Positions 8,426 to 56,440 of a stretch of 64,000 nucleotides of DNA are shown here, in pieces. This stretch comes from Escherichia coli (GTDB lineage: Bacteria; Pseudomonadota; Gammaproteobacteria; Enterobacterales; Enterobacteriaceae), in NCBI RefSeq assembly GCF_009931435.1, contig NZ_CP043414.1, one strand, 5' to 3'. Made by a program: the position numbers and the translations under genes. Each line of letters starts with the position of its first letter. Position 1 is the stretch's first letter. Under the pieces are notes generated by a model. It ran no database searches. It was not told where the DNA came from and saw only the letters and a list, made by a program, of their open reading frames with translations.

Positions 8426-8497
8426 GTTCCACAAATCCAGTTTCGAGGAGAGACGCTTCGTTTCAAGATAACCAGCGGGTCCACTCAACTACAGCTC

Positions 8498-29695: not shown

Positions 29696-30574
29696 TTACA
29701 CCAAATTTACAGAGAAGATTTCCTCGACCATTGCCCCCGCCAGACGCTGCGCTGAACAGAGTCGTGGCATCCCCAGTGCGACAGTTTGCCAGCGTTGGGT
29801 CACTGACCAGCAAACGGGTTGTTTATCTGCCGTGGACCACTTTCCCAGCCAACTTAAAAAATCAGCATGATCCCCACCCGTCGGGGCGGTTGAAGAGGTA
29901 AACCACTGATGGTAATAGTGACGAGTGGTCGTTGCCGCATTAATACTCTCTGCCAGATGTTGTGTCGCTTTCACGCGCAAATCATCAAGCAACAACGCCA
30001 CCGCTTGCGGGCTTCCCAGACGGCAGGCATCGCCAAATGCCCCCCAGCGCAACTCCTCCAGAACGATAAAACAGCGCCCAGGCAACGACCAGGCGTTATA
30101 CGCACCAGCACGCCAGCGGGTAAAAATTTGCTCACTCTGATCACCGGCCTGTACCAGTAATCCTCGTTGCGTTAACGCCTTTTCCTTCCAGCGACAACGG
30201 GCTGAAAACAACTCATACAAGGCGGCAATTTGCTGGGGGAGCTCCGGGAAAGCAGAGTGCTGGCGGTGATCCATTTTTTGCAGCAGCGCCAGATGCTGCG
30301 CGATCTGCGTCAGCGCCAGATGACCGGGATCCAGCATCGACGCCAGTTTTTCCACCAATGTCAGACGCAGGCTAAGCGGCGCATTTAACATGCCGCCGTT
30401 CGTCCATGACTGAAGCTGTACGCGCGCAAGAAGTTCCTGCATCAGTCGTTCACGAAACTGCTGCTGATGGGCTTGTGGATGGCGGGCATCATCGCCCTGC
30501 GCCAGATCCACTAAAAAGCGGGGATGAATCGACTCCAGCACACGACCGGGGCCGTCAAGTAACGTCTTGGTCAA
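29696..30574 (-). CDS. yjcZ: Uncharacterised protein YjcZ
   Basis: 292-aa ORF overlapping the crfC stop by 4 nt; matches YjcZ. Confidence 0.8.
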   Translation of the reverse strand: MTKTLLDGPGRVLESIHPRFLVDLAQGDDARHPQAHQQQFRERLMQELLARVQLQSWTNGGMLNAPLSLRLTLVEKLASMLDPGHLALTQIAQHLALLQKMDHRQHSAFPELPQQIAALYELFSARCRWKEKALTQRGLLVQAGDQSEQIFTRWRAGAYNAWSLPGRCFIVLEELRWGAFGDACRLGSPQAVALLLDDLRVKATQHLAESINAATTTRHYYHQWFTSSTAPTGGDHADFLSWLGKWSTADKQPVCWSVTQRWQTVALGMPRLCSAQRLAGAMVEEIFSVNLV

Positions 30575-32799
30575 TATCGTTCTGCCGTGAAAAGTGTTTG
30601 AATATCATCGCGTAACAGCTGAGCGTCGATGTAAATCCAGCCATGAGTCATCACAGTCTGCTGCAATTGCTGCTGCATCAGCCTGACCACCGATTCATTT
30701 TGTTGACGCAGAGCCAGACTTTCGCGTAAACGCGTCTGTAATTCCGTCAAACATGAAGCAAACTCAGCGAAAAAAGTATTCATGCCTGCCGTAACAGATT
30801 CATCGACCTGCTCTGCCAGAACTTTAGCCATTTGTTGGCAATAAAGATCGACTTCTGCGCTTAATGCTCGTTGCAACGCACTGTAATCAACCGTCTCTAT
30901 CGGGGATTTCTCATTTCCCCGTCCCCAGTCGGGCTGATTCAACCAGCGCGAAAAAGTCTCACGCACAACGCCTAAACGCGTGCTCTGCTCGTCCATTGCG
31001 TCCTGGCGCGAAATGACTTCACTGAACAGCTGGCGAGTGTTGAAGTGGGGAACTGCGCCGTGAAAAACAGGAAAATGAAACCCAGAACGAAACCCTGACT
31101 CGCTCAATTCCATTTTGACTTGTTGCTCAATGGGCCGAATAACATCGGTTAACACCCGGCAAAGAGTGGATTCAAGCTCGGCAAAACGCAGCGTAAAGTC
31201 GCGACTGATGGTGTTCTGCGCCGTCTGTAACAGTGTCTCACAGCAGGTACGAATCTCGCTTAATGACCCCGAATCATCCTGAAACAACGCGGCTAACTGG
31301 GCATTCACCGCATCTTGCTGTTGACGCAGAAAGAGGTTGGCGGAGGTCAGGGCCAGCTCGATTTCATGTTTAATCTCGCCGCTCACCTGAGCCTGATTGA
31401 GTTGAAATAGCTGCAAACTTTCTTCGATCTGGTGGATATTTTGCCGCAATTGTTCACAAGCGACGTTTAACCCGTGCGCACGAAAATCCAGGTATTCCCG
31501 CGCCTGCTGCGCGTAATTCAACAGTTTATGCGCGGCAGATCGCAGAGCATACAACGAGGCGTTAGCGTAAGCGGCATGAAGCAACGCCTGAATTGGCTGG
31601 GCGAACAGCGAATCTTCCCACAACTGATCGGCAGCATGACGAATATGTTCGAGGTCCGCCAGGTCGGCATGACGCCAGCGCCTGCCGAGCGCGGCATGGG
31701 CAAAATCTTCCACCCAGCGTTGTTGCTCTGGCGCGGGTAACTTACCGTTGTTGGCTAACTCATTACGCGCCCGATTCGCCAGGTAGCCCCACATCGACGA
31801 CACTGGAAATATCTGCTGTGGCGTAATACAGCCTTTCATCAGCGTCCCGGAAATCAGTGCCCGCACCTGGTCGGCGTCGTCACTGTTACGATCCTGTTGA
31901 TCGAACTTATTGACCAGCACATACAGCGGCACCGATTGCCCCACCGCCAAAATCGCCTCACGGACCTCGTCATCGGAGATCGATTTCAGTTGCGTATAAT
32001 CCAGCACCGCCAGTACCGCCGAGGCGCGAGCCAGCTGCTGGTTAAGCATTTTTTGCAGATGCGGTTGCCCGGCTTCATTTGGCCCAGGGGTATCCAGTAA
32101 CGTCAACTGACCGGGATAACTCTCCAGCCCCGCCAGATGGACAAACTCCACTTCAATCACGGGAATATGCTCAATGGCGGCGTAAGCAGAAAAAGGAAAA
32201 TCGACGTCCAGCGCCTTCGCCAGTCGCACCAAATCATTCAAACTTTTCAGACAATGAAAAATAGGCTGGGCACCCAGATAATATTTTTCGAAAGCGACGC
32301 CATTTTCGATCCGCTGCATAAGCGCACGCATATCTTTATCTATTTCCAGCACATCGGTCAGATGCTTAATATCGCAGTCACGCAGGCGCTGTTGTAATTG
32401 TTGAATTAAACAGTCGATTGGCGCGACATGTGAAAAATGCAGTACCGGTTCTTTTTGCCCGGGCGTATGACGAATAAGCGTCGGCAGCGCAGTCATTGGG
32501 CGATTGCGATTAGGCAGAACCTCCGTACCAACAATGGCATTAATGGTGGTTGATTTCCCTGCTTTCATAGTACCGACAATCGCCAGCACCATTTCCAGTC
32601 GGGAAATTTTACGCAACTCATTATTCAGCATCGCGTGACGTTCGGCGATATTAGGCTGACTCCAGGGTAAAGCCAGTTGTGGCGCATCGTCTCCGGGTAC
32701 AGAGAGAGGCATTTTTTCCAGTAACTGCAACTGTTGGCGAGAAAGCTGTAACAGGCGTTCAGCCTCCTGACTTAACTCATACAGGGTCTGTGTGTACAT
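30571..32799 (-). CDS. crfC: Dynamin-like large GTPase CrfC/YjdA
   Basis: 742-aa ORF with P-loop GTPase motif (GTMKAGKST) near the N-terminus and long coiled-coil-rich remainder. Confidence 0.85.
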   Translation of the reverse strand: MYTQTLYELSQEAERLLQLSRQQLQLLEKMPLSVPGDDAPQLALPWSQPNIAERHAMLNNELRKISRLEMVLAIVGTMKAGKSTTINAIVGTEVLPNRNRPMTALPTLIRHTPGQKEPVLHFSHVAPIDCLIQQLQQRLRDCDIKHLTDVLEIDKDMRALMQRIENGVAFEKYYLGAQPIFHCLKSLNDLVRLAKALDVDFPFSAYAAIEHIPVIEVEFVHLAGLESYPGQLTLLDTPGPNEAGQPHLQKMLNQQLARASAVLAVLDYTQLKSISDDEVREAILAVGQSVPLYVLVNKFDQQDRNSDDADQVRALISGTLMKGCITPQQIFPVSSMWGYLANRARNELANNGKLPAPEQQRWVEDFAHAALGRRWRHADLADLEHIRHAADQLWEDSLFAQPIQALLHAAYANASLYALRSAAHKLLNYAQQAREYLDFRAHGLNVACEQLRQNIHQIEESLQLFQLNQAQVSGEIKHEIELALTSANLFLRQQQDAVNAQLAALFQDDSGSLSEIRTCCETLLQTAQNTISRDFTLRFAELESTLCRVLTDVIRPIEQQVKMELSESGFRSGFHFPVFHGAVPHFNTRQLFSEVISRQDAMDEQSTRLGVVRETFSRWLNQPDWGRGNEKSPIETVDYSALQRALSAEVDLYCQQMAKVLAEQVDESVTAGMNTFFAEFASCLTELQTRLRESLALRQQNESVVRLMQQQLQQTVMTHGWIYIDAQLLRDDIQTLFTAERY

Positions 32800-33200
32800 A
32801 GAAAATTTTTCCTTAAAGCAAATTTTATTACTTTTATTTAGCCAGATTGTTTTTGAGTTCTGTTTTCGGCTTTTATAATTACTGCAAGAAATAATTTTAT
32901 ATTTAGAGTGTTGTTTTTTATTAGAATAAATAACGTCTTCCGATACGTTTAAAACGTCAGAAAGATAAAAATATCATTTGAATTAAAAAAAGAACAAGTA
33001 GAGCATTAACCTTATCTTAAATAATAAATGGAGGCAAAAAGATTATTTTCTTTTTGCGTTTCCTTTCAAATGAAAACGATCGTCGTCTAAAATCAGCAGT
33101 ACCCCCGACAAACTCAGGGATTTTGTGTATAATTGCGGCCTTTTTCGGCAATCTGCCGTTTTTTGGCGCTTTTGCCCTGCTGACTTTTGAGGAAATCCAC

Positions 33201-33536
33201 ATGTCATTACCACACTGCCCAAAATGCAACTCCGAATACACCTACGAAGATAACGGCATGTACATCTGCCCGGAATGTGCCTACGAATGGAACGACGTAG
33301 AACCTGCACAGGAAAGCGACGAGCTGATCGTTAAAGATGCTAACGGCAATCTGCTGGCTGACGGCGACAGCGTTACCATCATTAAAGATCTGAAGGTGAA
33401 AGGTAGCTCTTCGATGCTGAAGATCGGTACCAAAGTGAAAAACATTCGCCTGGTTGAAGGCGACCACAACATCGATTGCAAAATCGACGGTTTTGGTCCG
33501 ATGAAACTGAAATCTGAGTTTGTGAAAAAGAACTGA
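33201..33536 (+). CDS. phnA: Zinc-ribbon protein PhnA/YjdM
   Basis: 111 aa from the ATG at 33201 ([31 protein letters not shown]...); CxxC...CxxC zinc ribbon; extended -10 (tgtgtataat) about 70 bp upstream. Confidence 0.9.
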
Positions 33537-33559
33537 TTGTATTGCTCAATGTAATATTG

Positions 33560-33715
33560 GCACATGATCGGTAGGCCGGATAAGGCGCTCGCGCCGCATC
33601 CGGCTACGGTGCCGACTGCCTGATGCGACGCTCGCGCGTCTTATCAGGCCTACAAATTCTCGCACCATCCGGCAACGGTGCCTAATGCGACGCTTACCGA
33701 GTCTTATCAGCCCCC
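33560..33715. repeat. BIME/REP cluster of several palindromic units
   Basis: Repeated gcctgatgcgacgc...gtcttatcaggcctac and ggtaggccggataaggcg...ccgcatccggc motifs typical of enterobacterial REP elements. Confidence 0.85.
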
Positions 33716-33775
33716 GCTCATCTGTATAATTTTCGAACTACACTTAACTGGCTTCTCTTAACTGAGGTCACCATC

Positions 33776-34219
33776 ATGCCGTTAAGTCCCTACCTCTCTT
33801 TTGCTGGTAACTGTTCCGATGCGATTGCCTATTATCAACGCACGTTGGGCGCGGAACTGCTTTATAAAATCAGCTTCGGCGAAATGCCGAAATCAGCGCA
33901 GGACAGCGCCGAGAACTGCCCTTCCGGAATGCAATTTCCCGATACCGCCATCGCTCATGCCAACGTGCGCATTGCCGGAAGCGACATCATGATGAGCGAT
34001 GCCATACCGTCAGGAAAAGCCAGCTACTCCGGCTTTACGCTGGTACTCGATTCGCAACAGGTCGAAGAAGGAAAACGCTGGTTTGACAACCTTGCCGCTA
34101 ACGGAAAAATCGAAATGGCCTGGCAGGAAACTTTCTGGGCGCATGGCTTCGGCAAAGTCACCGATAAATTTGGCGTACCGTGGATGATTAATGTCGTCAA
34201 ACAACAACCAACGCACTAA
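33776..34219 (+). CDS. yjdN: VOC/glyoxalase-family protein YjdN (PhnB)
   Basis: 147-aa ORF matching YjdN/PhnB. Confidence 0.85.
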   Translation: MPLSPYLSFAGNCSDAIAYYQRTLGAELLYKISFGEMPKSAQDSAENCPSGMQFPDTAIAHANVRIAGSDIMMSDAIPSGKASYSGFTLVLDSQQVEEGKRWFDNLAANGKIEMAWQETFWAHGFGKVTDKFGVPWMINVVKQQPTH

Positions 34220-34245
34220 CCCGCCGGGAGGCCCGCCCTCCCGCA

Positions 34246-34296
34246 CTGTCATCGAATTCCCGTTAACTCTTCATCTGTTAGTCACTTTTAGTTAAC
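34246..34296 (+). promoter_or_regulatory. Putative Pho box / phnC promoter
   Basis: CTGTCAT at 34246 and CTGTTAG at 34275 with TTAAC-containing repeats 50-100 bp upstream of phnC; consistent with PhoB control of the phn operon, exact site boundaries uncertain. Confidence 0.5.
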
Positions 34297-34351
34297 AAAA
34301 TCGTCACGATAATCCGCCACGATGGAGCCACTTTTTTAGGGAGGCTGCATC

Positions 34352-35140
34352 ATGCAAACGATTATCCGCGTCGAACAACTGAGCAAAACCTTCAATCAGC
34401 ATCAGGCGCTGCACGCGGTTGATCTGAACATTCATCACGGTGAAATGGTGGCTCTGCTTGGGCCGTCGGGTTCCGGCAAATCCACCCTTTTACGTCACTT
34501 AAGCGGCCTGATTGTCGGCGATAAAAAGCCAGAATGCCGCGTCGAACTGCTGGGCCGCACCGTCCAGCAAAATGGCCGCCTGGCCCGCGATATCCGCAAA
34601 AGCCGCGCCAACACCGGCTACATCTTCCAACAATTCAACCTGGTGAATCGCCTGAGCGTACTGGAGAACGTGCTGATTGGCGCGCTCGGCAGCACGCCGT
34701 TCTGGCGTACCTGTTTTAGCTGGTTCACCCGCGAGCAGAAACAGCGTGCGTTACAGGCACTGACTCGCGTTGGGATGGTGCACTTTGCCCATCAGCGCGT
34801 TTCCACGCTCTCCGGCGGCCAGCAGCAGCGTGTGGCGATAGCCCGTGCGCTGATGCAGCAGGCGAAGGTGATTCTGGCCGATGAACCCATCGCCTCGCTG
34901 GACCCGGAATCGGCCCGCATCGTGATGGATACCCTGCGCGACATCAACCAGAACGACGGCATCACCGTGGTGGTGACGCTGCATCAGGTGGATTACGCCC
35001 TGCGCTACTGCGAACGCATCGTCGCCCTGCGCCAGGGGCACGTCTTCTACGACGGCAGCAGCCAACAGTTTGATAACGAACGTTTTGACCATCTCTACCG
35101 CAGCATTAACCGCGTCGAAGAGAACGCGAAAGCTGCCTGA
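34352..35140 (+). CDS. phnC: Phosphonate ABC transporter ATP-binding protein
   Basis: 262-aa ORF with Walker A (GPSGSGKST), ABC signature (LSGGQQQR) and Walker B. Confidence 0.95.
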
Positions 35141-35164
35141 CATCCCCATCATTGAGGAAAACGA

Positions 35165-36181
35165 ATGAACGCTAAGATAATTGCCTCGCTGGCCTTCACC
35201 AGCATGTTCAGCCTCAGCACCCTGTTCAGCCCGGCACACGCCGAAGAGCAGGAAAAGGCGCTGAATTTCGGCATTATTTCAACGGAATCACAGCAAAACC
35301 TGAAACCGCAATGGACGCCTTTCCTGCAAGATATGGAGAAGAAACTGGGCGTAAAGGTCAACGCCTTCTTTGCTCCGGACTACGCGGGCATTATCCAGGG
35401 GATGCGCTTCAATAAAGTGGATATCGCCTGGTACGGCAATCTGTCGGCGATGGAAGCGGTGGATCGCGCCAACGGTCAGGTCTTCGCCCAGACGGTCGCG
35501 GCGGATGGATCGCCGGGTTACTGGAGCGTGTTGATCGTCAACAAAGACAGTCCGATCAACAACCTGAACGATCTGCTGGCGAAGCGTAAAGATCTCACCT
35601 TTGGCAATGGCGATCCTAACTCCACCTCTGGCTTCCTCGTCCCCGGCTACTACGTCTTCGCCAAAAACAATATCTCCGCCAGCGACTTCAAGCGCACCGT
35701 CAACGCCGGGCATGAAACCAACGCGCTGGCCGTCGCCAACAAGCAGGTGGATGTGGCGACCAACAACACCGAGAACCTCGACAAGCTGAAAACCTCCGCA
35801 CCGGAGAAGCTCAAAGAACTGAAGGTGATCTGGAAATCGCCGCTGATCCCAGGCGATCCGATCGTCTGGCGCAAAAATCTTTCCGAAACCACCAAAGACA
35901 AGATCTACGACTTCTTTATGAACTACGGCAAAACGCCGGAAGAGAAAGCGGTGCTGGAGCGCCTGGGCTGGGCCCCGTTCCGCGCCTCCAGCGACCTGCA
36001 ACTGGTGCCAATTCGCCAGCTCGCGCTGTTTAAAGAGATGCAGGGCGTGAAAGGCAATAAGGGACTGAATGAGCAGGACAAGCTGGCAAAAACCACCGCC
36101 ATTCAGGCGCAACTGGATGATTTGGACCGCCTGAACAACGCGTTAAGCGCAATGAGTTCGGTGAGTAAAGCGGTGCAGTAA
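35165..36181 (+). CDS. phnD: Phosphonate ABC transporter periplasmic binding protein
   Basis: 338-aa ORF with N-terminal signal peptide; matches PhnD. Confidence 0.95.
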   Translation: MNAKIIASLAFTSMFSLSTLFSPAHAEEQEKALNFGIISTESQQNLKPQWTPFLQDMEKKLGVKVNAFFAPDYAGIIQGMRFNKVDIAWYGNLSAMEAVDRANGQVFAQTVAADGSPGYWSVLIVNKDSPINNLNDLLAKRKDLTFGNGDPNSTSGFLVPGYYVFAKNNISASDFKRTVNAGHETNALAVANKQVDVATNNTENLDKLKTSAPEKLKELKVIWKSPLIPGDPIVWRKNLSETTKDKIYDFFMNYGKTPEEKAVLERLGWAPFRASSDLQLVPIRQLALFKEMQGVKGNKGLNEQDKLAKTTAIQAQLDDLDRLNNALSAMSSVSKAVQ

Positions 36182-36187
36182 TGTGCT

Positions 36188-36295
36188 CGATCGGTCCCCT
36201 CTCCCTTGAGGGAGAGGGTTAGGGTGAGGGGGGAAATACGCACGCTGATGCCCTCACCCCGGCCCTCTCCTACAGGGAGAGGGAGAAAACATTAA
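36188..36295. repeat. GC-rich nested palindromic element between phnD and phnE (family not assigned)
   Basis: Three inverted-repeat pairs: cccctctccc/gggagaggg, agggtgagggg/ccctcacccc, ccctctcc/gggagaggg. Confidence 0.6.
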
Positions 36296-36307
36296 ACGGA
36301 GCCAAAC

Positions 36308-37087
36308 ATGCAAACCATCACCATCGCCCCACCCAAGCGCAGCTGGTTCTCGATCTTCAGCTGGGCCGTTGTTCTCGCCGTACTGGTCGTCTCGTGGCAG
36401 GGCGCGGAAATGGCCCCGCTCACGCTGATTAAAGACGGCGGCAACATGGCGACGTTCGCCGCCGACTTCTTCCCGCCCGATTTCAGCCAGTGGCAGGATT
36501 ACCTCACCGAAATGGCCGTCACGCTGCAAATCGCCGTCTGGGGCACTGCGCTGGCAGTCGTTCTCTCCATCCCCTTCGGCCTGATGAGCGCCGAAAACCT
36601 GGTGCCGTGGTGGGTTTACCAGCCCGTTCGCCGCCTGATGGACGCCTGCCGCGCCATTAACGAGATGGTCTTCGCCATGCTGTTCGTGGTCGCCGTCGGT
36701 CTCGGTCCGTTCGCTGGCGTACTGGCGCTGTTTATCCACACCACCGGCGTGCTCTCCAAACTGCTTTCCGAAGCGGTAGAAGCAATTGAACCCGGCCCGG
36801 TGGAAGGTATTCGCGCCACTGGTGCCAACAAGCTCGAAGAGATCCTCTATGGCGTGCTGCCGCAGGTGATGCCGCTGCTGATCTCCTACTCCCTCTATCG
36901 CTTCGAATCCAACGTCCGTTCGGCCACCGTTGTTGGCATGGTCGGCGCTGGCGGGATCGGCGTCACGCTGTGGGAAGCGATTCGCGGTTTCCAGTTCCAG
37001 CAAACCTGCGCCCTGATGGTGCTGATTATCGTCACGGTCAGCCTGCTGGATTTCCTCTCTCAACGGTTGCGTAAGCACTTTATCTGA
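36308..37087 (+). CDS. phnE: Phosphonate ABC transporter permease, intact reading frame
   Basis: Uninterrupted 259-aa polytopic membrane ORF matching PhnE. Confidence 0.9.
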
Positions 37088-37107
37088 TAAGCGAGGCATT
37101 GATAGCT

Positions 37108-37833
37108 ATGCACTTGTCTACACATCCGACCAGCTACCCAACACGCTATCAGGAGATAGCCGCAAAACTTGAGCAGGAGCTTCGTCAACACTACCGCTGC
37201 GGCGACTATCTTCCCGCCGAGCATCAACTGGCGGCACGCTTTGAGGTGAATCGCCACACCCTGCGCCGCGCCATCGACCAACTGGTGGAAAAAGGCTGGG
37301 TACAGCGCCGTCAGGGCGTCGGCGTGCTGGTGCTGATGCGCCCGTTCGATTACCCGCTCAACGCCCAGGCGCGTTTTAGCCAGAACCTGCTGGATCAGGG
37401 TAGCCATCCCACCAGCGAAAAACTGCTGTCGGTGCTGCGCCCGGCCTCCGGCCACGTCGCTGACGCGCTGGGGATAACCGAGGGCGAGAACGTTATCCAC
37501 CTGCGCACCCTGCGTCGGGTCAACGGCGTCGCACTCTGTTTAATCGACCACTACTTTGCGGACCTCACTCTCTGGCCGACGCTGCAACGCTTCGACAGCG
37601 GCTCGCTGCACGATTTTTTGCACGAGCAAACGGGAATTGCGCTGCGCCGCAGCCAGACGCGGATCAGCGCCCGCCGCGCCCAGGCCAAAGAGTGCCAGCG
37701 TCTTGAAATTCCGAATATGTCGCCGCTGCTGTGCGTGCGCACCCTTAACCACCGTGACGGTGAAAGCAGCCCGGCGGAGTACTCCGTCAGCCTGACGCGC
37801 GCCGACATGATTGAATTCACCATGGAGCACTGA
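37108..37833 (+). CDS. phnF: GntR-family repressor of the phn operon
   Basis: 241 aa from the ATG at 37108 (MHLSTHPTSYPTRYQEIAAK...); N-terminal GntR HTH. Confidence 0.9.
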   Translation: MHLSTHPTSYPTRYQEIAAKLEQELRQHYRCGDYLPAEHQLAARFEVNRHTLRRAIDQLVEKGWVQRRQGVGVLVLMRPFDYPLNAQARFSQNLLDQGSHPTSEKLLSVLRPASGHVADALGITEGENVIHLRTLRRVNGVALCLIDHYFADLTLWPTLQRFDSGSLHDFLHEQTGIALRRSQTRISARRAQAKECQRLEIPNMSPLLCVRTLNHRDGESSPAEYSVSLTRADMIEFTMEH

Positions 37834-38286
37834 ATGCACGCAGATACCGCGACCCGCCAGCACTGGATGTCCGTGCTGGCGCACAGCCAACCGGCTGAAC
37901 TGGCTAACCGCCTTAAAGCGCTAAACATCACCGCCGACTATGACATGATCCGCGCCGCCGAAACCGGCCTGGTACAGATTCAGGCGCGAATGGGTGGCAC
38001 CGGCGAACGCTTTTTTGCTGGCGACGCTACGCTCACCCGCGCCGCTGTACGCCTTACTGACGGCACGCTCGGCTACAGCTGGGTGCTGGGGCGCGACAAA
38101 CAGCACGCCGAACGCTGCGCGCTGATTGACGCGCTGATGCAGCAATCTCGCCACTTTCAAAACTTATCAGAAACCCTTATTGCCCCGCTGGACGCTGACC
38201 GTATGGCACGCATTGCCGCACGCCAGGCCGAAGTGAACGCCAGTCGGGTCGACTTCTTTACGATGGTTCGCGGAGACAACGCATGA
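37834..38286 (+). CDS. phnG: C-P lyase core complex subunit PhnG
   Basis: 150-aa ORF starting immediately after the phnF stop (tgaATG). Confidence 0.9.
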
Positions 38287-38867
38287 CCCTGGAAACCGCT
38301 TTTATGCTTCCCGTGCAGGATGCCCAGCACAGTTTTCGTCGCCTGTTAAAGGCCATGAGCGAGCCGGGCGTGATTGTCGCCCTGCATCAACTCAAACGCG
38401 GCTGGCAGCCGCTGAATATCGCCACCACCAGCGTGCTGCTGACGCTGGCCGATAACGACACGCCGGTGTGGCTTTCTGCGCCATTAAGTAACGATATCGT
38501 CAGCCAGAGCCTGCGTTTTCATACCAACGCGCCGCTGGTCAATCAGCCGGAACAGGCGACCTTCGCAGTGACGGATGAGGCGATTGCCAGCGAGCAGCTC
38601 AACGCCCTTTCCATCGGCACCGCCGTTGCGCCGGAAGCCGGTGCGACGTTGATTTTACAGGTCACCAGCCTGAGCGGCGGACGCATGCTGCGCCTCACCG
38701 GCGCGGGTATTGCCGAAGAACGGATGATCGCCCCGCAACTGCCGGAGTGCATTCTGCACGAACTCACCGAGCGCCCGCACCCGTTCCCGCTCGGCATCGA
38801 CCTGATCCTGACCTGCGGCGAGCGCCTGCTGGCTATCCCGCGAACCACTCATGTGGAGGTGTGCTGA
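38283..38867 (+). CDS. phnH: C-P lyase core complex subunit PhnH
   Basis: 194-aa ORF with 4-nt overlap to phnG. Confidence 0.9.
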
Positions 38868-39931
38868 TGTACGTTGCCGTGAAAGGGGGCGAAAAGGCGA
38901 TCGACGCCGCCCACGCCCTGCAAGAGAGCCGACGCCGGGGCGATACTGATTTGCCTGAACTGAGCGTCGCCCAGATTGAACAGCAGCTTAATCTCGCGGT
39001 GGATCGCGTGATGACCGAAGGCGGCATTGCCGACCGTGAACTGGCGGCACTAGCGCTGAAACAGGCCAGCGGCGATAACGTTGAAGCGATTTTCCTGTTG
39101 CGCGCCTACCGCACGACGCTGGCAAAGCTGGCGGTGAGCGAGCCGCTCGACACCACCGAGATGCGGCTCGAACGCCGTATTTCGGCGGTTTATAAAGACA
39201 TTCCCGGCGGCCAGTTGCTTGGCCCGACCTACGACTACACCCATCGCCTGCTCGATTTCACCCTGCTGGCGAATGGCGAAGCGCCGACGCTGACCACCGC
39301 CGACAGCGAGCAAGCCCCATCGCCGCACGTTTTCAGCCTGCTGGCGCGTCAGGGGCTGGCGAAGTTTGAAGAGGATAGCGGCGCACAGCCGGACGACATC
39401 ACCCGCACGCCGCCGGTTTACCCCTGCTCACGTTCTTCCCGTTTGCAGCAGCTCATGCGCGGAGACGAAGGCTATTTGCTGGCGCTGGCCTACTCCACCC
39501 AGCGTGGTTACGGACGCAATCACCCGTTCGCAGGCGAAATCCGCAGTGGCTATATCGACGTGTCTATTGTGCCGGAAGAGCTGGGATTTGCGGTGAACAT
39601 CGGCGAACTGCTGATGACCGAGTGTGAAATGGTCAACGGTTTTATCGACCCGCCGGATGAGCCGCCGCACTTCACGCGCGGCTACGGGCTGGTGTTCGGC
39701 ATGAGCGAGCGCAAAGCGATGGCAATGGCGCTGGTTGACCGCGCTCTACAAGCCCCGGAGTACGGCGAGCACGCGACAGGCCCGGCGCAGGATGAAGAGT
39801 TCGTGCTGGCGCATGCCGACAACGTCGAAGCCGCAGGCTTTGTCTCGCACCTCAAACTCCCGCACTACGTCGATTTCCAGGCCGAACTGGAGCTACTCAA
39901 ACGTCTGCAACAGGAGCAGAACCATGGCTAA
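38867..39931 (+). CDS. phnI: C-P lyase subunit PhnI (ribose-1-methylphosphonate 5-triphosphate synthase component)
   Basis: 354 aa from the ATG at 38867 ([16 protein letters not shown]...), overlapping the phnH stop; the ORF-track start at 38747 is an extension. Confidence 0.9.
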   Translation: MYVAVKGGEKAIDAAHALQESRRRGDTDLPELSVAQIEQQLNLAVDRVMTEGGIADRELAALALKQASGDNVEAIFLLRAYRTTLAKLAVSEPLDTTEMRLERRISAVYKDIPGGQLLGPTYDYTHRLLDFTLLANGEAPTLTTADSEQAPSPHVFSLLARQGLAKFEEDSGAQPDDITRTPPVYPCSRSSRLQQLMRGDEGYLLALAYSTQRGYGRNHPFAGEIRSGYIDVSIVPEELGFAVNIGELLMTECEMVNGFIDPPDEPPHFTRGYGLVFGMSERKAMAMALVDRALQAPEYGEHATGPAQDEEFVLAHADNVEAAGFVSHLKLPHYVDFQAELELLKRLQQEQNHG

Positions 39932-40769
39932 TCTGAGCGGCTACAACTTTGCCTACCTCGACGAGCAGACCAAACGTATGATCCGCCGCGCCATCTTAAA
40001 AGCGGTGGCGATCCCCGGTTATCAGGTGCCGTTTGGCGGGCGCGAGATGCCGATGCCATACGGCTGGGGAACTGGTGGTATCCAGCTTACCGCCAGCGTG
40101 ATTGGCGAAAGCGACGTGTTGAAGGTGATTGACCAGGGCGCGGATGACACCACCAACGCCGTATCAATTCGCAACTTTTTCAAGCGCGTGACCGGGGTAA
40201 ACACCACTGAACGTACGGATGATGCGACGCTTATCCAGACGCGCCACCGCATCCCCGAAACGCCGCTGACCGAAGATCAGATCATTATTTTCCAGGTGCC
40301 GATCCCCGAACCGCTGCGCTTTATCGAGCCGCGCGAAACGGAGACCCGCACTATGCACGCGCTGGAGGAGTACGGCGTGATGCAGGTGAAACTGTATGAA
40401 GATATCGCCCGCTTCGGTCATATCGCCACCACCTACGCCTATCCGGTGAAGGTGAACGGACGCTACGTAATGGACCCATCGCCGATCCCGAAATTTGATA
40501 ACCCGAAAATGGACATGATGCCCGCCCTGCAACTGTTTGGCGCGGGGCGCGAGAAGCGTATTTATGCGGTGCCGCCGTTTACCCGCGTGGAAAGCCTCGA
40601 TTTCGACGATCATCCGTTCACCGTTCAGCAGTGGGATGAACCCTGCGCCATCTGCGGATCGACCCACAGCTATCTCGATGAAGTGGTGCTGGATGACGCC
40701 GGAAACCGCATGTTTGTCTGTTCCGATACCGATTATTGCCGCCAACAGAGCGAGGCGAAAAGCCAATGA
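39924..40769 (+). CDS. phnJ: C-P lyase PhnJ (radical-SAM-dependent C-P bond cleavage enzyme)
   Basis: 281 aa from the ATG at 39924 (MANLSGYNFAYLDEQTKRMIRR...); C-terminal Cys cluster CxxC...C...C. Confidence 0.9.
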   Translation: MANLSGYNFAYLDEQTKRMIRRAILKAVAIPGYQVPFGGREMPMPYGWGTGGIQLTASVIGESDVLKVIDQGADDTTNAVSIRNFFKRVTGVNTTERTDDATLIQTRHRIPETPLTEDQIIIFQVPIPEPLRFIEPRETETRTMHALEEYGVMQVKLYEDIARFGHIATTYAYPVKVNGRYVMDPSPIPKFDNPKMDMMPALQLFGAGREKRIYAVPPFTRVESLDFDDHPFTVQQWDEPCAICGSTHSYLDEVVLDDAGNRMFVCSDTDYCRQQSEAKSQ

Positions 40770-41524
40770 ATCAACCGTTACTTTCGGTCAATAACCTGAC
40801 CCACCTCTACGCACCGGGCAAAGGCTTCAGCGACGTTTCTTTTGATTTATGGCCGGGGGAAGTGCTGGGCATCGTCGGGGAATCCGGTTCCGGGAAGACC
40901 ACGCTGCTGAAATCAATCTCCGCGCGCCTGACGCCGCAGCAGGGGGAGATTCGCTATGAAAACCGTTCCCTCTATGGCATGAGCGAAGCCGACCGCCGCC
41001 GTTTACTGCGCACCGAATGGGGCGTGGTACATCAGCATCCGCTCGACGGCCTGCGTCGCCAGGTCTCGGCAGGCGGCAATATCGGCGAACGGCTGATGGC
41101 GACCGGGGCGCGTCATTACGGCGATATTCGCGCCACCGCGCAGAAGTGGCTGGAAGAGGTGGAGATTCCCGCCAACCGGATCGACGACCTGCCGACCACT
41201 TTTTCCGGCGGTATGCAGCAGCGTTTGCAGATTGCCCGCAACCTGGTGACGCATCCGAAGCTGGTGTTTATGGATGAACCGACCGGCGGGCTGGATGTAT
41301 CAGTGCAAGCGCGCCTGCTCGATCTGCTGCGCGGTCTGGTGGTGGAGCTGAACCTGGCGGTGGTGATTGTCACCCACGATCTGGGCGTCGCCCGCCTGCT
41401 GGCGGACCGTTTGCTGGTGATGAAGCAAGGGCAAGTGGTGGAGAGTGGGTTAACCGACCGCGTGCTCGACGACCCGCATCACCCGTATACCCAGCTGCTG
41501 GTGTCATCGGTTTTGCAGAATTGA
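40766..41524 (+). CDS. phnK: C-P lyase-associated ABC-type ATPase PhnK
   Basis: 252 aa from the ATG at 40766 (MNQPLLSVNNL...); Walker A GESGSGKTT. Confidence 0.9.
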   Translation: MNQPLLSVNNLTHLYAPGKGFSDVSFDLWPGEVLGIVGESGSGKTTLLKSISARLTPQQGEIRYENRSLYGMSEADRRRLLRTEWGVVHQHPLDGLRRQVSAGGNIGERLMATGARHYGDIRATAQKWLEEVEIPANRIDDLPTTFSGGMQQRLQIARNLVTHPKLVFMDEPTGGLDVSVQARLLDLLRGLVVELNLAVVIVTHDLGVARLLADRLLVMKQGQVVESGLTDRVLDDPHHPYTQLLVSSVLQN

Positions 41525-41535
41525 GCCTTGCTTGT

Positions 41536-41690
41536 GTCGGGTGGCGCTGCGCTTACCCGACCTACGGTACATGTAGGCCGGATAAGGCGTAGCCGCCATC
41601 CGGCTTATCAGGCCTACAAAACCATCGTAATACATTGATATTGATTCATTTGTAGGCCGGATAAGGCGCAGCCGCCATCCGGCAAAAACA
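41536..41690. repeat. BIME/REP cluster inside the phn operon, between phnK and phnL
   Basis: Tandem/inverted copies of gtaggccggataaggcg...ccgccatccggc and ttatcaggcctac REP motifs. Confidence 0.85.
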
Positions 41691-41703
41691 CGAAGAGGCC
41701 AAA

Positions 41704-42384
41704 ATGATCCGCGTCGAAAACGTCAGTAAAACCTTCATCCTGCACCAACAAAACGGCGTGCGCCTGCCCGTCTTACAACGCGCCTCGCTCACCGTCAACG
41801 CGGGCGAATGCGTGGTGCTCCACGGCCATTCCGGCAGCGGCAAATCAACCCTGCTGCGCTCGCTGTACGCTAACTATCTGCCCGACGAAGGGCAAATTCA
41901 GATCAAACATGGTGACGAGTGGGTAGACCTGGTCACCGCGCCAGCGCGCAAAGTGGTGGAAATCCGCAAAACCACCGTCGGCTGGGTGAGCCAGTTTCTG
42001 CGGGTCATCCCGCGTATTTCGGCGCTGGAAGTGGTAATGCAGCCGCTGCTCGATACCGGCGTTCCGCGTGAAGCCTGCGCCGCTAAAGCCGCCCGTCTGC
42101 TCACCCGCCTGAACGTGCCGGAACGTCTGTGGCACCTGGCGCCATCGACCTTCTCCGGCGGCGAACAGCAGCGCGTCAACATCGCGCGCGGCTTTATCGT
42201 CGATTACCCCATTCTGCTGCTCGACGAACCTACTGCCTCGCTGGACGCCAAAAACAGCGCCGCGGTGGTGGAACTGATCCGCGAAGCTAAAACCCGCGGC
42301 GCAGCCATCGTCGGCATCTTCCACGACGAAGCCGTACGCAATGACGTCGCCGACCGCCTCCACCCAATGGGAGCCTCTGCATGA
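41704..42384 (+). CDS. phnL: C-P lyase-associated ABC-type ATPase PhnL
   Basis: 226-aa ORF with Walker [10 protein letters not shown]. Confidence 0.9.
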
Positions 42385-43517
42385 TTATCAATAACGTCAA
42401 ACTGGTGCTGGAAAACGAAGTGGTACACGGTTCGCTGGAGGTGCAGGACGGCGAAATTCGCGCCTTTGCCGAAAGCCAGAGCCGCCTGCCAGAAGCGATG
42501 GACGGCGAAGGTGGCTGGCTGCTGCCGGGGCTGATTGAGCTGCATACCGACAACCTCGATAAATTCTTCACTCCGCGCCCGAAAGTGGACTGGCCTGCCC
42601 ACTCAGCGATGAGCAGCCACGACGCGCTGATGGTGGCGAGCGGCATCACCACGGTGCTGGATGCCGTGGCGATTGGCGACGTGCGCGACGGCGGCGATCG
42701 GCTGGAGAATCTGGAGAAGATGATCAACGCCATCGAAGAGACGCAGAAACGCGGGGTCAACCGCGCCGAGCACCGTCTGCACCTGCGCTGTGAACTGCCG
42801 CATCACACTACGCTGCCGCTGTTTGAAAAACTGGTGCAGCGCGAGCCGGTCACGCTGGTGTCGCTGATGGACCACTCGCCGGGCCAGCGCCAGTTCGCCA
42901 ATCGCGAGAAGTATCGCGAATATTACCAGGGCAAATACTCGCTCACCGATGCGCAGATGCAGCAGTACGAAGAGGAACAACTGGCGCTTGCCGCACGCTG
43001 GTCGCAGCCGAATCGCGAAACCATCGCCGCAATATGCCGCGCGCGACAAATTGCCCTCGCCAGCCACGATGATGCTACGCACGAGCACGTTGCCGAATCC
43101 CACCAGCTTGGCAGCGTAATCGCCGAATTTCCCACCACGTTCGAAGCGGCGGAAGCTTCGCGCAAGCATGGCATGAATGTATTGATGGGCGCGCCGAATA
43201 TTGTGCGCGGCGGTTCGCACTCCGGCAACGTGGCGGCAAGCGAACTGGCACAGCTTGGCCTGCTGGATATCCTCTCTTCCGACTACTACCCCGCCAGCCT
43301 GCTCGATGCGGCATTTCGCGTCGCCGATGACGAGAGCAACCGCTTTACGCTGCCGCAGGCGGTGAAGCTGGTGACTAAAAATCCGGCGCAGGCGCTTAAT
43401 CTTCAGGATCGCGGGGTGATTGGCGAGGGCAAACGCGCCGACCTGGTGCTGGCGCATCGCAAGGGCAACCACATTCATATCGATCACGTCTGGCGTCAGG
43501 GTAAAAGGGTGTTCTGA
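42381..43517 (+). CDS. phnM: PhnM, amidohydrolase-family ribosyl-methylphosphonate triphosphate diphosphatase
   Basis: 378-aa ORF with 4-nt overlap to phnL; matches PhnM. Confidence 0.9.
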
Positions 43518-44074
43518 TGACGGGAAAACTGATTTGGTTAATGGGGGCCTCTGGCTCCGGAAAAGACAGTCTGTTGACGGAACTCCGCCAGCGGGAACAA
43601 ACTCAGCTACTGGTAGCGCATCGCTACATCACGCGCGCCGCCAGCGCCGGAAGTGAAAACCATATCGCCCTGAGCGAGCAGGAGTTTTTTACCCGCGCGG
43701 GGCAGAACCTTCTGGCCTTAAGCTGGCACGCCAACGGCCTGTATTATGGCATCGGCGTCGAGATTGACCTCTGGCTACACGCCGGATTCGACGTGGTGGT
43801 CAACGGCTCACGCGCGCATTTGCCGCAGGCGCGGGCGCGCTATCAATCGGCTCTGCTGCCTATCTGTTTACAGGTGTCACCGGAGATCCTGCGCCAGCGT
43901 CTGGAAAACCGTGGTCGTGAAAATGCCAGTGAAATTAACGCCCGGCTGGCGCGCGCTGCCCGCTATACTCCTCAGGATTGTCTTACGCTCAATAATGACG
44001 GCAGCCTGCGCCAGTCGGTCGACAAGCTGCTGACGCTGATTCATCAGAAGGAGAAACACCATGCCTGCTTGTGA
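43517..44074 (+). CDS. phnN: Ribose 1,5-bisphosphate phosphokinase PhnN
   Basis: 185-aa ORF with P-loop GASGSGKDS; overlaps the phnM stop. Confidence 0.9.
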
Positions 44075-44495
44075 GCTTCGTCCGGCCACGCAGTACGACA
44101 CCGACGCGGTTTACGCGCTGATTTGTGAGCTAAAACAGGCGGAGTTTGACCACCATGCGTTTCGCGTGGGCTTTAACGCCAACCTGCGCGACCCGAACAT
44201 GCGCTACCATCTGGCGCTGCTGGAAGGCGAAGTTGTCGGCATGATCGGCCTGCATTTGCAGTTTCATCTGCATCATGTCAACTGGATCGGCGAAATTCAG
44301 GAACTGGTGGTGATGCCGCAGGCGCGCGGTCTGAACGTCGGCAGTAAATTACTGGCATGGGCCGAAGAAGAAGCCCGCCAGGCCGGGGCCGAAATGACCG
44401 AGCTTTCCACCAACGTCAAGCGCCACGACGCGCACCGTTTCTATCTGCGCGAAGGCTACGAGCAGAGCCACTTCCGCTTCACCAAGGCGCTGTAA
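44061..44495 (+). CDS. phnO: Aminoalkylphosphonate N-acetyltransferase PhnO (GNAT)
   Basis: 144-aa ORF overlapping phnN by 14 nt. Confidence 0.9.
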
Positions 44496-44496
44496 C

Positions 44497-45255
44497 ATGA
44501 GCCTGACCCTCACACTTACTGGCACTGGCGGCGCACAGGGTGTTCCCGCATGGGGCTGTGAGTGCGCGGCCTGCGCCAGAGCGCGGCGCTCACCGCAGTA
44601 TCGCCGCCAGCCATGCAGCGGCGTCGTGAAGTTTAACGACGCGATCACCCTGATCGACGCCGGACTGCACGATCTCGCCGATCGCTGGTCGCCCGGATCG
44701 TTCCAGCAGTTTTTGCTGACGCACTACCATATGGATCACGTGCAGGGGCTGTTTCCGCTGCGCTGGGGCGTGGGCGATTCGATCCCGGTCTACGGCCCGC
44801 CGGATGAACAGGGCTGCGACGATCTGTTTAAACATCCGGGCCTGCTTGATTTCAGCCACACGGTGGAGCCATTTGTGATGTTTGATTTGCAGGGATTACA
44901 GGTCACGCCGCTGCCGCTCAACCATTCGAAACTCACTTTCGGCTATCTACTGGAAACGGCACATAGCCGGGTGGCGTGGCTGTCTGACACCGCAGGCCTG
45001 CCGGAAAAAACGGTGAAATTTTTATGCAATAATCAGCCACAGGTAATGGTGATTGATTGCTGCCACCCACCGCGCGCGAATTCGCCACGCAATCACTGTG
45101 ATTTAAACACCGTGCTGGCGCTGAATGAAGTTATCCGCTCGCCGTGCGTGGTTCTGACACATATCAGCCATCAGTTTGATGCGTGGCTGATGGAGAACAT
45201 ACTGCCGTCAGGGTTTGAGGCGGGGTTTGATGGGATGGAGATTGGGGTGGAGTGA
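44497..45255 (+). CDS. phnP: Metallo-beta-lactamase-fold cyclic phosphodiesterase PhnP
   Basis: 252-aa ORF with HxHxDH motif ([10 protein letters not shown]). Confidence 0.9.
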
Positions 45256-45289
45256 TGGGTGAGGGGCGATGCCTGCTCTAAACTCAACA

Positions 45290-45598
45290 TCACCGCCCAT
45301 ACTCATCTTCCATTCTCCGCTCTTCATCTTCTAGCTGCCGACGCTCCTGATCCAGCTGGCGCTGGCGATCGTCCAGCTGCCTGCGGCGATCTTCATATTG
45401 TCTGCGCCGATCGTCGTTCACTTCACGCTGCCAGCCGTCGTCGCGCCAATCTTCATAGTCTCGCCCACGGTCAGGGTTATAAGCATCGTTAATCGCCTGC
45501 TGAATATTGCCAATGGTGTCGTCGATAATATCGGCCTGGGCCGGAACGGTGGACAGCGTGAGCAGGGTGAATAAAAGAAATAGCGGAAAACGTTTCAT
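45290..45598 (-). CDS. yjdP: Small secreted low-complexity protein YjdP (Arg/Asp/Glu/Gln-rich)
   Basis: 102-aa ORF with signal peptide (MKRFPLFLLFTLLTLSTVPAQA) and charged repeats (RRRQYEDRRRQLDDRQRQLDQERRQLEDEE). Confidence 0.8.
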   Translation of the reverse strand: MKRFPLFLLFTLLTLSTVPAQADIIDDTIGNIQQAINDAYNPDRGRDYEDWRDDGWQREVNDDRRRQYEDRRRQLDDRQRQLDQERRQLEDEERRMEDEYGR

Positions 45599-45666
45599 TA
45601 GCCAACCTCAAAAAGAAACTCTATCCACATTAGTCATTACTCATCCATGCAAGTAGTGGATGAATC

Positions 45667-45984
45667 TCAATTTTTCCGCTGCTCTATTGCCGTAATCGCC
45701 TCCACGCGTTGTTGATGACGACCGCCTTCGTACTGCGCGCCCAGCCACGCATCCACAATCATTTTTGCCAGTTCGAGGCCAACCACTCGTGAACCAAAAG
45801 CCAGTGCAACTTCACTGGCGTAATGCGGATAATCAGTGCGCTCTGACGACCTGGTTTCTTTATCAATCCCCTCACTCATTGACCATGAATAAAAGGCTGG
45901 CACAGCAACGCAGAATCCTGCGGTGCCAGCGACATGACCGCCCATTGCTCCGGTACGTTTTTTAATAAGAAACACCGGTTGCAT
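45667..45984 (-). pseudogene. rpiB: rpiB-like remnant: the C-terminal ~45 residues and a short N-proximal block match ribose-5-phosphate isomerase B, but the central part is missing and the N-terminus is diverged
   Basis: Translation ...ETRSSERTDYPHYASEVALAFGSRVVGLELAKMIVDAWLGAQYEGGRHQQRVEAITAIEQRKN matches RpiB segments as I recall them, but the ORF is 105 aa against ~149 aa for RpiB, with no match to the central catalytic region. Confidence 0.55.
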
Positions 45985-46236
45985 TGATTAATTGTGCTCA
46001 GTATTTGCCGAAGTACAATATATATAATAAATATATAAAACACCTCATATTATTTACAGAGATAATAAATTCGCGTACTTTTCCCTCTTCAGCACAAATG
46101 CCTAATAAAATGGCTCGTTCCGCTCACACTTCCACTTATTAAAATCGCAATTTCCCAATTATGATAACGCCAGCTTTAAATGACGTATTTTGCATGGATT
46201 ACATATTTACGACACAAATGATAAATGGAGATTTAT

Positions 46237-48222
46237 ATGAATAACTCTCGGTTATTCCGTTTGAGCAGGATTGTTATTGCGTTAACTGCCGCCAGCGGCA
46301 TGATGGTAAATACCGCTCACGCAACAGATGAAGCGAAAGCCGCCACTCAATATACCCAACAGGTTAATCAGAATTACGCCAAATCATTACCGTTTAGCGA
46401 TCGTCAGGATTTTGACGATGCCCAGCGCGGATTTATCGCCCCGCTGCTGGATGAAGGTATTCTGCGCGATGCGAATGGCAAAGTTTACTACCGCGCGAAT
46501 GATTACAAATTTGATATTAATGCCGCTGCGCCGGAAACCGTAAACCCCAGCCTGTGGCGTCAGTCGCAGATCAACGGCATTTCTGGTCTGTTCAAAGTCA
46601 CCGATAAAATGTATCAGGTGCGCGGCCAGGATATCTCTAACATTACATTCGTTGAGGGCGAGAAAGGCATTATTGTTATCGACCCACTGGTGACGCCGCC
46701 TGCCGCAAAAGCCGCACTTGACCTTTACTTCCAGCATCGTCCGCAAAAACCGATTGTTGCTGTTATTTACACCCACAGCCACGCCGACCATTATGGCGGT
46801 GTGAAAGGCATTATCTCTGAAGCGGATGTTAAATCTGGCAAAGTGCAGGTGATCGCTCCGGCAGGCTTTATGGACGAAGCCATCAGCGAAAACGTGCTGG
46901 CGGGTAACATCATGAGCCGCCGTGCGCTCTACTCTTACGGTCTGTTACTGCCGCACAACGCGCAAGGCAACGTGGGCAACGGCCTGGGCGTGACGCTGGC
47001 AACGGGCGACCCGAGCATTATTGCGCCAACCAAAACGATTGTCAGAACTGGCGAGAAGATGATTATCGACGGCCTGGAGTTTGACTTCCTGATGACTCCG
47101 GGTAGCGAAGCGCCAGCCGAAATGCACTTCTATATTCCGGCCCTGAAAGCCCTGTGTACCGCCGAAAACGCCACGCATACCCTGCACAACTTCTACACCC
47201 TGCGCGGCGCGAAAACCCGCGATACCAGCAAGTGGACAGAGTATCTGAACGAAACGCTGGATATGTGGGGTAACGACGCGGAAGTACTGTTTATGCCGCA
47301 CACCTGGCCGGTCTGGGGCAATAAGCATATCAATGATTATATTGGTAAATATCGCGATACTATCAAATACATTCACGACCAGACCCTGCACCTGGCGAAC
47401 CAGGGTTACACCATGAATGAAATTGGCGACATGATTAAGCTGCCACCTGCGCTTGCCAATAACTGGGCCAGCCGCGGCTATTACGGTTCTGTTAGCCACA
47501 ACGCCCGTGCAGTGTATAACTTCTATCTCGGCTATTATGACGGCAATCCAGCTAACCTACATCCGTACGGTCAGGTGGAGATGGGCAAACGTTACGTGAA
47601 AGCGCTGGGCGGTTCCGCCCGTGTCATCAACCTGGCGCAAGAAGCGAACAAGCAAGGGGATTACCGCTGGTCAGCAGAGTTGCTGAAACAGGTGATTGCC
47701 GCCAATCCGGGTGACCAGGTGGCGAAGAATCTGCAAGCGAATAACTTTGAACAGCTGGGCTATCAGGCCGAGTCCGCCACCTGGCGCGGTTTCTACCTGA
47801 CCGGCGCAAAAGAGCTGCGCGAAGGGGTGCATAAGTTCAGCCACGGCACCACGGGTTCTCCGGACACCCTTCGCGGGATGTCGGTCGAAATGCTGTTCGA
47901 CTTTATGGCCGTTCGCCTCGATAGCGCGAAAGCCGCAGGTAAGAATATCAGCCTGAACTTCAATATGAGCAACGGCGATAACCTCAACCTGACGCTGAAC
48001 GATAGCGTGCTTAACTACCGTAAAACGCTGCAACCTGAAGCCAACGCCTCTTTCTACATCAGCCGTGAAGATCTTCACGCCGTGCTGACCGGACAAGCCA
48101 AAATGGCGGATCTGGTAAAAGCGAAGAAAGCCAAAATTATTGGCAATGGCGCGAAACTGGAAGAAATTATTGCCTGTCTGGATAATTTCGATTTGTGGGT
48201 GAATATCGTAACCCCAAATTAA
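46237..48222 (+). CDS. yjcS: Putative alkyl/aryl sulfatase (metallo-beta-lactamase fold) YjcS
   Basis: 661 aa from the ATG at 46237 ([29 protein letters not shown], signal peptide); HxHxDH motif ([10 protein letters not shown]). Confidence 0.9.
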
Positions 48223-48229
48223 TGCCACT

Positions 48230-48270
48230 CACTTTTGGGGGCGCTTAAGCCCCCAAAAGTATTTATTTTA
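48230..48270 (+). terminator. Rho-independent terminator after yjcS
   Basis: cttttgggggc / gcccccaaaag inverted repeat followed by a T-rich tract (tatttatttt). Confidence 0.65.
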
Positions 48271-48430
48271 AAAATACATACAACCAATTAATACATAAAA
48301 TATATAAGTTATGAATGCGGTGGCTGAATAAAGCTATTTTTATTCATCGAGAAAATAGCCATACTGACGCCTTCAATGGATATTGATATTCACTACAGAT
48401 ATTGTTCGCAGCAGACAGGATGTATTTAAT

Positions 48431-48706
48431 ATGCCAACAGTTCTCTCTCGCATGGCGATGCAACTCAAAAAAACAGCCTGGATAATTCCCGTCTTCATGG
48501 TTTCGGGATGCTCATTATCTCCGGCAATCCCGGTGATCGGCGCTTATTATCCCAGCTGGTTTTTCTGCGCCATTGCCAGCCTTATTTTGACGCTCATCAC
48601 GAGGCGAATTATTCAGCGGGCAAATATCAATCTGGCATTTGTCGGAATTATTTATACCGCCCTTTTTGCTCTCTACGCCATGCTGTTCTGGCTGGCATTT
48701 TTCTAA
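48431..48706 (+). CDS. ytcA: Small lipoprotein-like membrane protein YtcA
   Basis: 91 aa from the ATG at 48431 (MPTVLSRMAMQLKKTAWIIPVFMVSGCSL...), lipobox-like SGC; directly upstream of mdtN. Confidence 0.75.
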   Translation: MPTVLSRMAMQLKKTAWIIPVFMVSGCSLSPAIPVIGAYYPSWFFCAIASLILTLITRRIIQRANINLAFVGIIYTALFALYAMLFWLAFF

Positions 48707-48724
48707 TCTATTTGAGACGCGCTC

Positions 48725-56398: not shown

Positions 56399-56440
56399 TG
56401 TAGGCCTGATAAGACGCGGCAAGCGTCGCATCAGGCATCC
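56399..56440. repeat. Single REP element between yjcO and gltP
   Basis: gtaggcctgataagacgcggcaagcgtcgcatcaggc matches the REP consensus. Confidence 0.8.

Follow-up and report, generated by a model that had tools for sequence, protein, structure and literature searches.

In E. coli K-12, an 8-bp duplication in phnE makes the organism phosphonate-negative (PMC3463581, PMC4759930). Loss of the duplication, found in revertants, is sufficient to turn K-12 phosphonate-positive, and E. coli B, which does not carry the duplication, is phosphonate-proficient (PMC3463581). Replication slippage between direct repeats brings about this loss at high frequency, activating the permease (PMC4759930). As cited in PMC3463581, the work of Makino et al. 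1991 and Iqbal et al. 2004 describes functional phn operons, phn(EcoB) in E. coli B and phn(EcoK+) in K-12 revertants.

The DNA analysed here is a 64,000-nucleotide stretch from E. coli, referred to throughout as the window. It very probably carries a wild-type, in-frame phnE as part of a complete phnCDEFGHIJKLMNOP operon, in a strain of E. coli other than K-12.

Gene content and predicted function of the phn operon

All 14 genes from phnC to phnP were found in order, on one strand and at full length, giving a C-P lyase operon of the E. coli type (Table 1). The preliminary description had listed the complete set, and this was confirmed: the 13 genes other than phnE have exactly the K-12 lengths, contain no internal stop codons and encode products with 94-99% amino-acid identity to those of K-12, and family models were matched by the products of all 14. 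The curated NCBIfam equivalog cutoff was reached by 11 of the 14; PhnI and PhnJ, for which NCBIfam has no model, gave Pfam family matches of about 500 bits. DNA identity of the genes to MG1655 ranged from 92.0 to 96.7%. Synonymous changes relative to K-12 outnumber non-synonymous changes in every phn gene, indicating continued purifying selection. The partners of phnE, phnC and phnD, adjoin it upstream and both exceed their equivalog cutoffs, and the sequence of PhnE predicts that it serves as the membrane permease in PhnCDE, an ABC importer for phosphonate.

Table 1 Features of the phn operon and its spacers in the window, with supporting evidence
Feature	Position	Strand	Evidence and details
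yjdN (phnB), directly upstream of operon	33776..34219	+	147 aa, 145/147 identical to K-12 YjdN; Pfam Glyoxalase, 3-dmu-9_3-mt
yjdN-phnC spacer, phnC promoter region	34220..34351	+	alignment
phnC, ABC transporter ATPase	34352..35140	+	262 aa; NF007438 595.9 bits, cutoff 365
phnD, periplasmic phosphonate-binding protein	35165..36181	+	338 aa, 335/338 identical to K-12; TIGR03431 376 bits, cutoff 261
phnD-phnE spacer hairpin repeat element, long, nearly perfect	36195..36286	+	RNA fold and alignment
phnE, ABC transporter permease, intact	36308..37087	+	TIGR01097; protein identity to WP_001193492.1
Two-unit 8-bp slippage tract (GCTGGCGT ACTGGCG), phnE codons 136-140	36713..36727	+	alignment to MG1655
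phnF, GntR-family regulator	37108..37833	+	241 aa, 239/241 identical to K-12; NF007486 515.8 bits, cutoff 363
phnG, C-P lyase core subunit	37834..38286	+	150 aa; TIGR03293 178.9 bits, cutoff 89
phnH, C-P lyase core subunit	38283..38867	+	194 aa; TIGR03292 205 bits, cutoff 91.5
phnI, C-P lyase core subunit	38867..39931	+	354 aa, 350/354 identical to K-12; Pfam PF05861 515 bits
phnJ, radical-SAM C-P bond-cleaving subunit	39924..40769	+	281 aa, 279/281 identical to K-12; Pfam PF06007 502 bits
phnK, ATP-binding subunit	40766..41524	+	252 aa; TIGR02323 410.5 bits, cutoff 302.85
phnK-phnL spacer, REP-type palindromes	41525..41703	+	179 nt; alignment and RNA fold
phnL, ATP-binding subunit	41704..42384	+	226 aa; TIGR02324 369 bits, cutoff 256.3
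phnM, RPnTP diphosphatase	42381..43517	+	378 aa; NF011981 809 bits, cutoff 375
phnN, ribose 1,5-bisphosphokinase	43517..44074	+	185 aa; NF007485 353.7 bits, cutoff 153
phnO, aminoalkylphosphonate N-acetyltransferase	44061..44495	+	144 aa; NF007530 313.6 bits, cutoff 142
phnP, cyclic phosphodiesterase	44497..45255	+	252 aa; TIGR03307 419.6 bits, cutoff 272.25

Tight translational coupling had been described for the whole operon. This applies to nine junctions, at which the genes overlap or are separated by at most 1 nt, but not to phnD-phnE (126 nt) or phnK-phnL, and because these two spacers are long and filled with repeats the description was a slight overstatement. At all other junctions the genes overlap by 1-14 nt or lie 0-24 nt apart, the gaps including those of phnC-phnD (24 nt) and phnE-phnF (20 nt), and the arrangement is that of K-12, in which the two long spacers are also present but differ in repeat content.

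The phnD-phnE spacer (36182-36307) has a predicted fold of -67.9 kcal/mol (z = -6.2), in which the hairpin arms CCCTCTCCC...GGGAGAGGG are nested with GGGTGAGGGG...CCCTCACCCC. A pattern search found one copy of this element in the window. The element is shared with E. coli Z0117EC0005, whereas MG1655 has a REP element in its place. Since an element with the same motifs lies in the phnK-phnL spacer of Z0117EC0005, the phnD-phnE element seems to be an intergenic repeat that is mobile or variable. The phnK-phnL spacer of the window folds at -86 kcal/mol (z = -6.9); its counterpart in K-12 measures 110 nt, and that in Z0117EC0005, which holds the element resembling the phnD-phnE hairpin, measures 177 nt. 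The altered repeats at the two sites could shift the relative expression of the genes downstream. The first codons of phnL encode MIRVE here versus MINVQ.

Upstream of phnC, the spacer that follows yjdN differs from MG1655 by three substitutions and is otherwise identical, and the same three bases are present in Z0117EC0005. By analogy with K-12, the phnC promoter would be under Pho regulation. A search for a Pho box at this promoter with an ad hoc degenerate pattern gave no match and was uninformative, the total number of sites matched by the pattern being close to that expected by chance. A sigma-70 consensus scan of the same spacer found no consensus promoter, as expected for an activator-dependent promoter, and was equally uninformative.

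The phnC gene carries a rare patch of substitutions at 34515-34585 (codons ~55-78), comprising T55V, S59K, V60P, G61E, S62C, H63R, I64V, R73Q and E74N. In the segment 34480-34620, about 81 E. coli records out of 5188 share at least 95% identity with the window, the other 5107 being of the K-12 type. An origin of the patch in paired compensating frameshifts was considered and rejected: the nucleotide alignment shows plain substitutions and no indels, and the cluster at residues 55-64 is therefore an allelic patch. The patch could in principle alter the ATPase; the catalytic motifs of PhnC (Walker A, Q-loop, signature and Walker B) are unchanged from K-12.

Extrapolating from K-12 and E. coli B, PhoB would turn on the phnC promoter under phosphate starvation, periplasmic phosphonate would be bound by PhnD and imported by PhnE with PhnC, and the C-P lyase pathway (PhnGHIJKLM with PhnN and PhnP) would yield PRPP and an alkane. 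The intact frames, taken together with this biology, lead to the expectation that the strain should grow on alkylphosphonates as sole phosphorus source without prior mutation.

Alternatively, the operon could be silent or defective despite its intact frames, through changes of a missense kind (the PhnC loop allele, for example) or of a regulatory kind (the promoter substitutions or the intergenic hairpins), but this is quite improbable. Changes of both kinds are present: non-synonymous codons relative to K-12 number 13 in phnC, where 7 fall in a cluster at residues 55-64, 14 in phnP and 10 in phnN, and to these are added the three substitutions in the promoter spacer and the highly stable hairpins of the two long spacers. 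Against this, the synonymous excess extends to every gene, all products for which a curated NCBIfam model exists exceed the cutoff over their full length, and the ABC motifs of PhnC are unaltered. The promoter variants and the phnD-phnE element also occur in other E. coli, and K-12 too has repeat elements in both spacers. A functional phn locus is accordingly the preferred prediction, made from sequence and by analogy with characterised strains. On this prediction the strain should use phosphonates, and organophosphates scavenged through PhnE, without prior mutation, which adds little to what the annotation already conveys.

The phnE reading frame and its repeat tract

The preliminary description had reported phnE as a single uninterrupted frame of 259 codons. 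The open reading frame listing and re-translation agreed with this, giving an ATG start, 259 sense codons, a terminal TGA, no internal stop and no frameshift. A GGAG sequence lies 8 nt 5' of the ATG, and a longer start is impossible because a stop codon is in frame six codons upstream of it. The protein scored 311.4 bits (E = 4e-93) against the NCBIfam equivalog TIGR01097, above the curated cutoff of 216.7, and the alignment of residues 15-258 to model positions 7-251 of 252 is full-length. Residues 88-258 also matched Pfam PF00528 (BPD_transp_1) with 91.8 bits, and all 259 residues are identical to those of RefSeq WP_001193492.1.

The window was aligned to the K-12 reference MG1655 (NC_000913.3). 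The phnE of MG1655 contains three units, GCTGGCGT GCTGGCGT GCTGGCG, that is GCTGGCGTGCTGGCGTGCTGGCG, and the window contains two, GCTGGCGTACTGGCG; the extra 8 bases of MG1655 fall exactly at this tract. The alignment, like the two publications on the K-12 allele, upheld the earlier statement that K-12 phnE carries an 8-bp duplication, and it showed the duplication to be absent here; the phnE of the window lies outside the cryptic K-12 allele defined by three tandem GCTGGCGT units. The K-12 frame is indeed interrupted: read from the shared ATG, it shifts after codon ~140 and reaches a stop at codon 190. In MG1655 the pseudogene is annotated from an ATG located 51 nt further upstream, within the REP element.

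A stretch of 32 PhnE residues, which we take to be the EAA loop, is encoded 3' of the repeat tract. With two units rather than three, the frame of the window stays open, so that both this loop and the C-terminal part are kept, whereas K-12 PhnE, being out of frame and stopping at codon 190, lacks both the 32-residue stretch and the C-terminal membrane segments.

The phnE genes of the window and K-12 differ at 35 nucleotides, with 31 synonymous and 2 non-synonymous codons. One difference from K-12 lies within the tract: at the base matching the first base of the second unit in K-12 the window has A for G, a synonymous change of the valine codon GTG to GTA that leaves 6 instead of 7 bases of repeated homology.

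A two-unit tract is also what a K-12 derivative would show after loss of one 8-bp unit, and phn(EcoK+) revertants of this kind arise frequently by slippage (PMC4759930, PMC3463581). Such an origin for the present sequence is barely conceivable given the 35 nucleotide differences from MG1655 in phnE, the operon-wide DNA identity of 92-97%, the spacer elements unlike those of MG1655 and the absence of melB and the als operon; the 75-nt haplotype around the tract in the window also differs from that of K-12 at three sites. Practically no credence can be given to the proposal that the true gene is a 281-codon open reading frame antisense to phnE (36254-37099, minus strand) and the plus-strand frame its shadow: the long antisense frame does appear in the open reading frame listing, but its 281-aa product matched no family and it was rejected, while the plus-strand product is full-length PhnE, in a frame that fits the substitution pattern and the GC content by codon position (0.62/0.42/0.78). 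The tract is therefore read as that of a wild-type, in-frame phnE of a non-K-12 strain.

Allele census and surrounding DNA

The phnE alleles of complete E. coli genomes were surveyed with short probes. The first, 83 nt long and designed on the three-unit allele of K-12, reached 4127 of 5426 genomes, and probes of the window haplotype reached 3648 of the 5426; since a match requires an exact 28-base word and only these numbers of genomes were reached, all allele fractions given here are approximate. In the set of 4127, the three-unit allele was represented by about 1004 records (at least 95% identity to the 83-nt probe) and the two-unit allele by about 3125 (80-95% identity, with a match 8 bases shorter). 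The intact two-unit phnE is thus the majority state in E. coli and the K-12 copy the exception, by about 3125 records to about 1004. An intact phnE, being the common state, is on its own weak evidence of anything unusual, and the allele, its protein and its operon are ordinary and already catalogued. Because the MG1655 pseudogene is the exception, K-12-based metabolic models predict too little use of phosphonates for most E. coli.

The three-unit allele extends beyond laboratory K-12: besides laboratory strains, it was found in isolates from humans, chicken, dog, river water and cucumber. Every three-unit allele found carries the K-12 flanking haplotype, and two-unit alleles with that haplotype occur in a further 1345 genomes. 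The exact 75-nt haplotype of the window, including the GTA codon, was present in 394 records among the 3648 genomes reached.

These counts bear on the idea that phnE is a natural contingency (phase-variable) locus in E. coli populations and not a laboratory oddity, an idea that we consider rather unlikely. In about one quarter of the complete genomes within reach of the 83-nt probe, phnE is present as the OFF (three-unit) allele. A three-unit allele on the flanks of the window had no close match among the E. coli genomes reached by the probe (3648 of 5426), and three-unit alleles in other haplotypes with an uninterrupted repeat were likewise absent from the census. The GTA change could stabilise the ON state in the lineage of the window. 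The proposal that interruption of the repeat by GTA has locked the gene ON was set aside: haplotypes with a perfect repeat are also without three-unit alleles, so the census lends it no support in either direction and provides no evidence that the change has an effect.

The sequence had been suggested not to derive from MG1655 or W3110, and this was substantiated by the differences in phnE, the divergence of the phn genes and the missing melB and als operon. The flanks of the phn operon have 96.4-97.7% DNA identity to MG1655. At 16648-16669, the end of melA is joined to yjdF, with about 20 nt in place of the 1665 bp of MG1655 (4343267-4344931) that contain melB. This deletion is shared by the closest E. 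coli genomes, since their alignment crosses the point in one piece. At 45667-46013 the als operon, from alsK to alsR, is missing with about 6.8 kb of MG1655 (4306822-4313662), leaving yjcS directly next, and rpiB is a 105-aa remnant open reading frame (45667-45984, minus strand). The same arrangement of als and the rpiB remnant is annotated in E. coli Z0117EC0005 and RMDEC465. Smaller segments of MG1655 are missing between yjdM and yjdN (33671-33679, about 446 bp), where RMDEC465 has an IS621-family element, and between gltP and yjcO (56400-56438, about 525 bp). Downstream of the operon, the DDRRRQL-repeat protein YjdP (45290-45598, minus strand) has 102 aa here versus 109 aa in K-12, and the phnP-yjdP spacer measures 34 nt versus 146 nt.

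The closest complete E. coli genomes have 99.2-99.3% identity to the window over positions 1-25000 and 97.7-97.9% over 30000-50000, a drop indicating that the phn region is mosaic and more diverse than its surroundings. Within 30000-50000, 500-nt bins compared with the nearest E. coli genomes range in identity from about 92% to 100%.

A further match was found outside E. coli, in the type strain of Pseudocitrobacter vendiensis. Positions 10144-11780 of its contig NZ_CALSBS010000011.1 have 98.0% DNA identity to positions 36263-37898 of the window, spanning phnE, phnF and the start of phnG, and encode a PhnE identical to that of the window. Over window positions 33142-36218 the mean identity is 89.5%, with 73-90% in the lowest 500-nt bins before phnC; downstream, the comparison covers about 3.3 kb beyond the 98.0% match. 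Among GTDB species representatives, an exact 30-mer of the phnC patch occurs only in this strain, P. vendiensis CPO20170097T (8467-8496 of the same contig). The high identity across phnE and phnF next to the lower identity upstream suggests that phn DNA was exchanged between Escherichia and Pseudocitrobacter.

Comparison with described phn loci

The phnE of the window occupies the same locus as the phnE1 pseudogene (b4583) of K-12 MG1655, the cryptic phn(EcoK0) allele. With one 8-bp unit removed, b4583 has 95.5% DNA identity to the window gene and its product would differ at two amino acids (L16I, L17F). Unlike the window, MG1655 has three 8-bp units, and the REP element upstream of its phnE stands where the window has the long hairpin element.

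In their two-unit, in-frame phnE and in the order of their 14 genes, phn(EcoB) and phn(EcoK+) resemble the window, as described in the literature cited above; the likeness to E. coli B rests on that literature, the direct DNA comparison being with the genes of K-12 (92-97% identity). E. coli Z0117EC0005 (NZ_CP098223.1) carries an identical PhnE (WP_001193492.1), the same flanking genes and the same phnD-phnE hairpin element, with 98.6% DNA identity to the window over a 1.2-kb region and about 97.6% over the surrounding operon.
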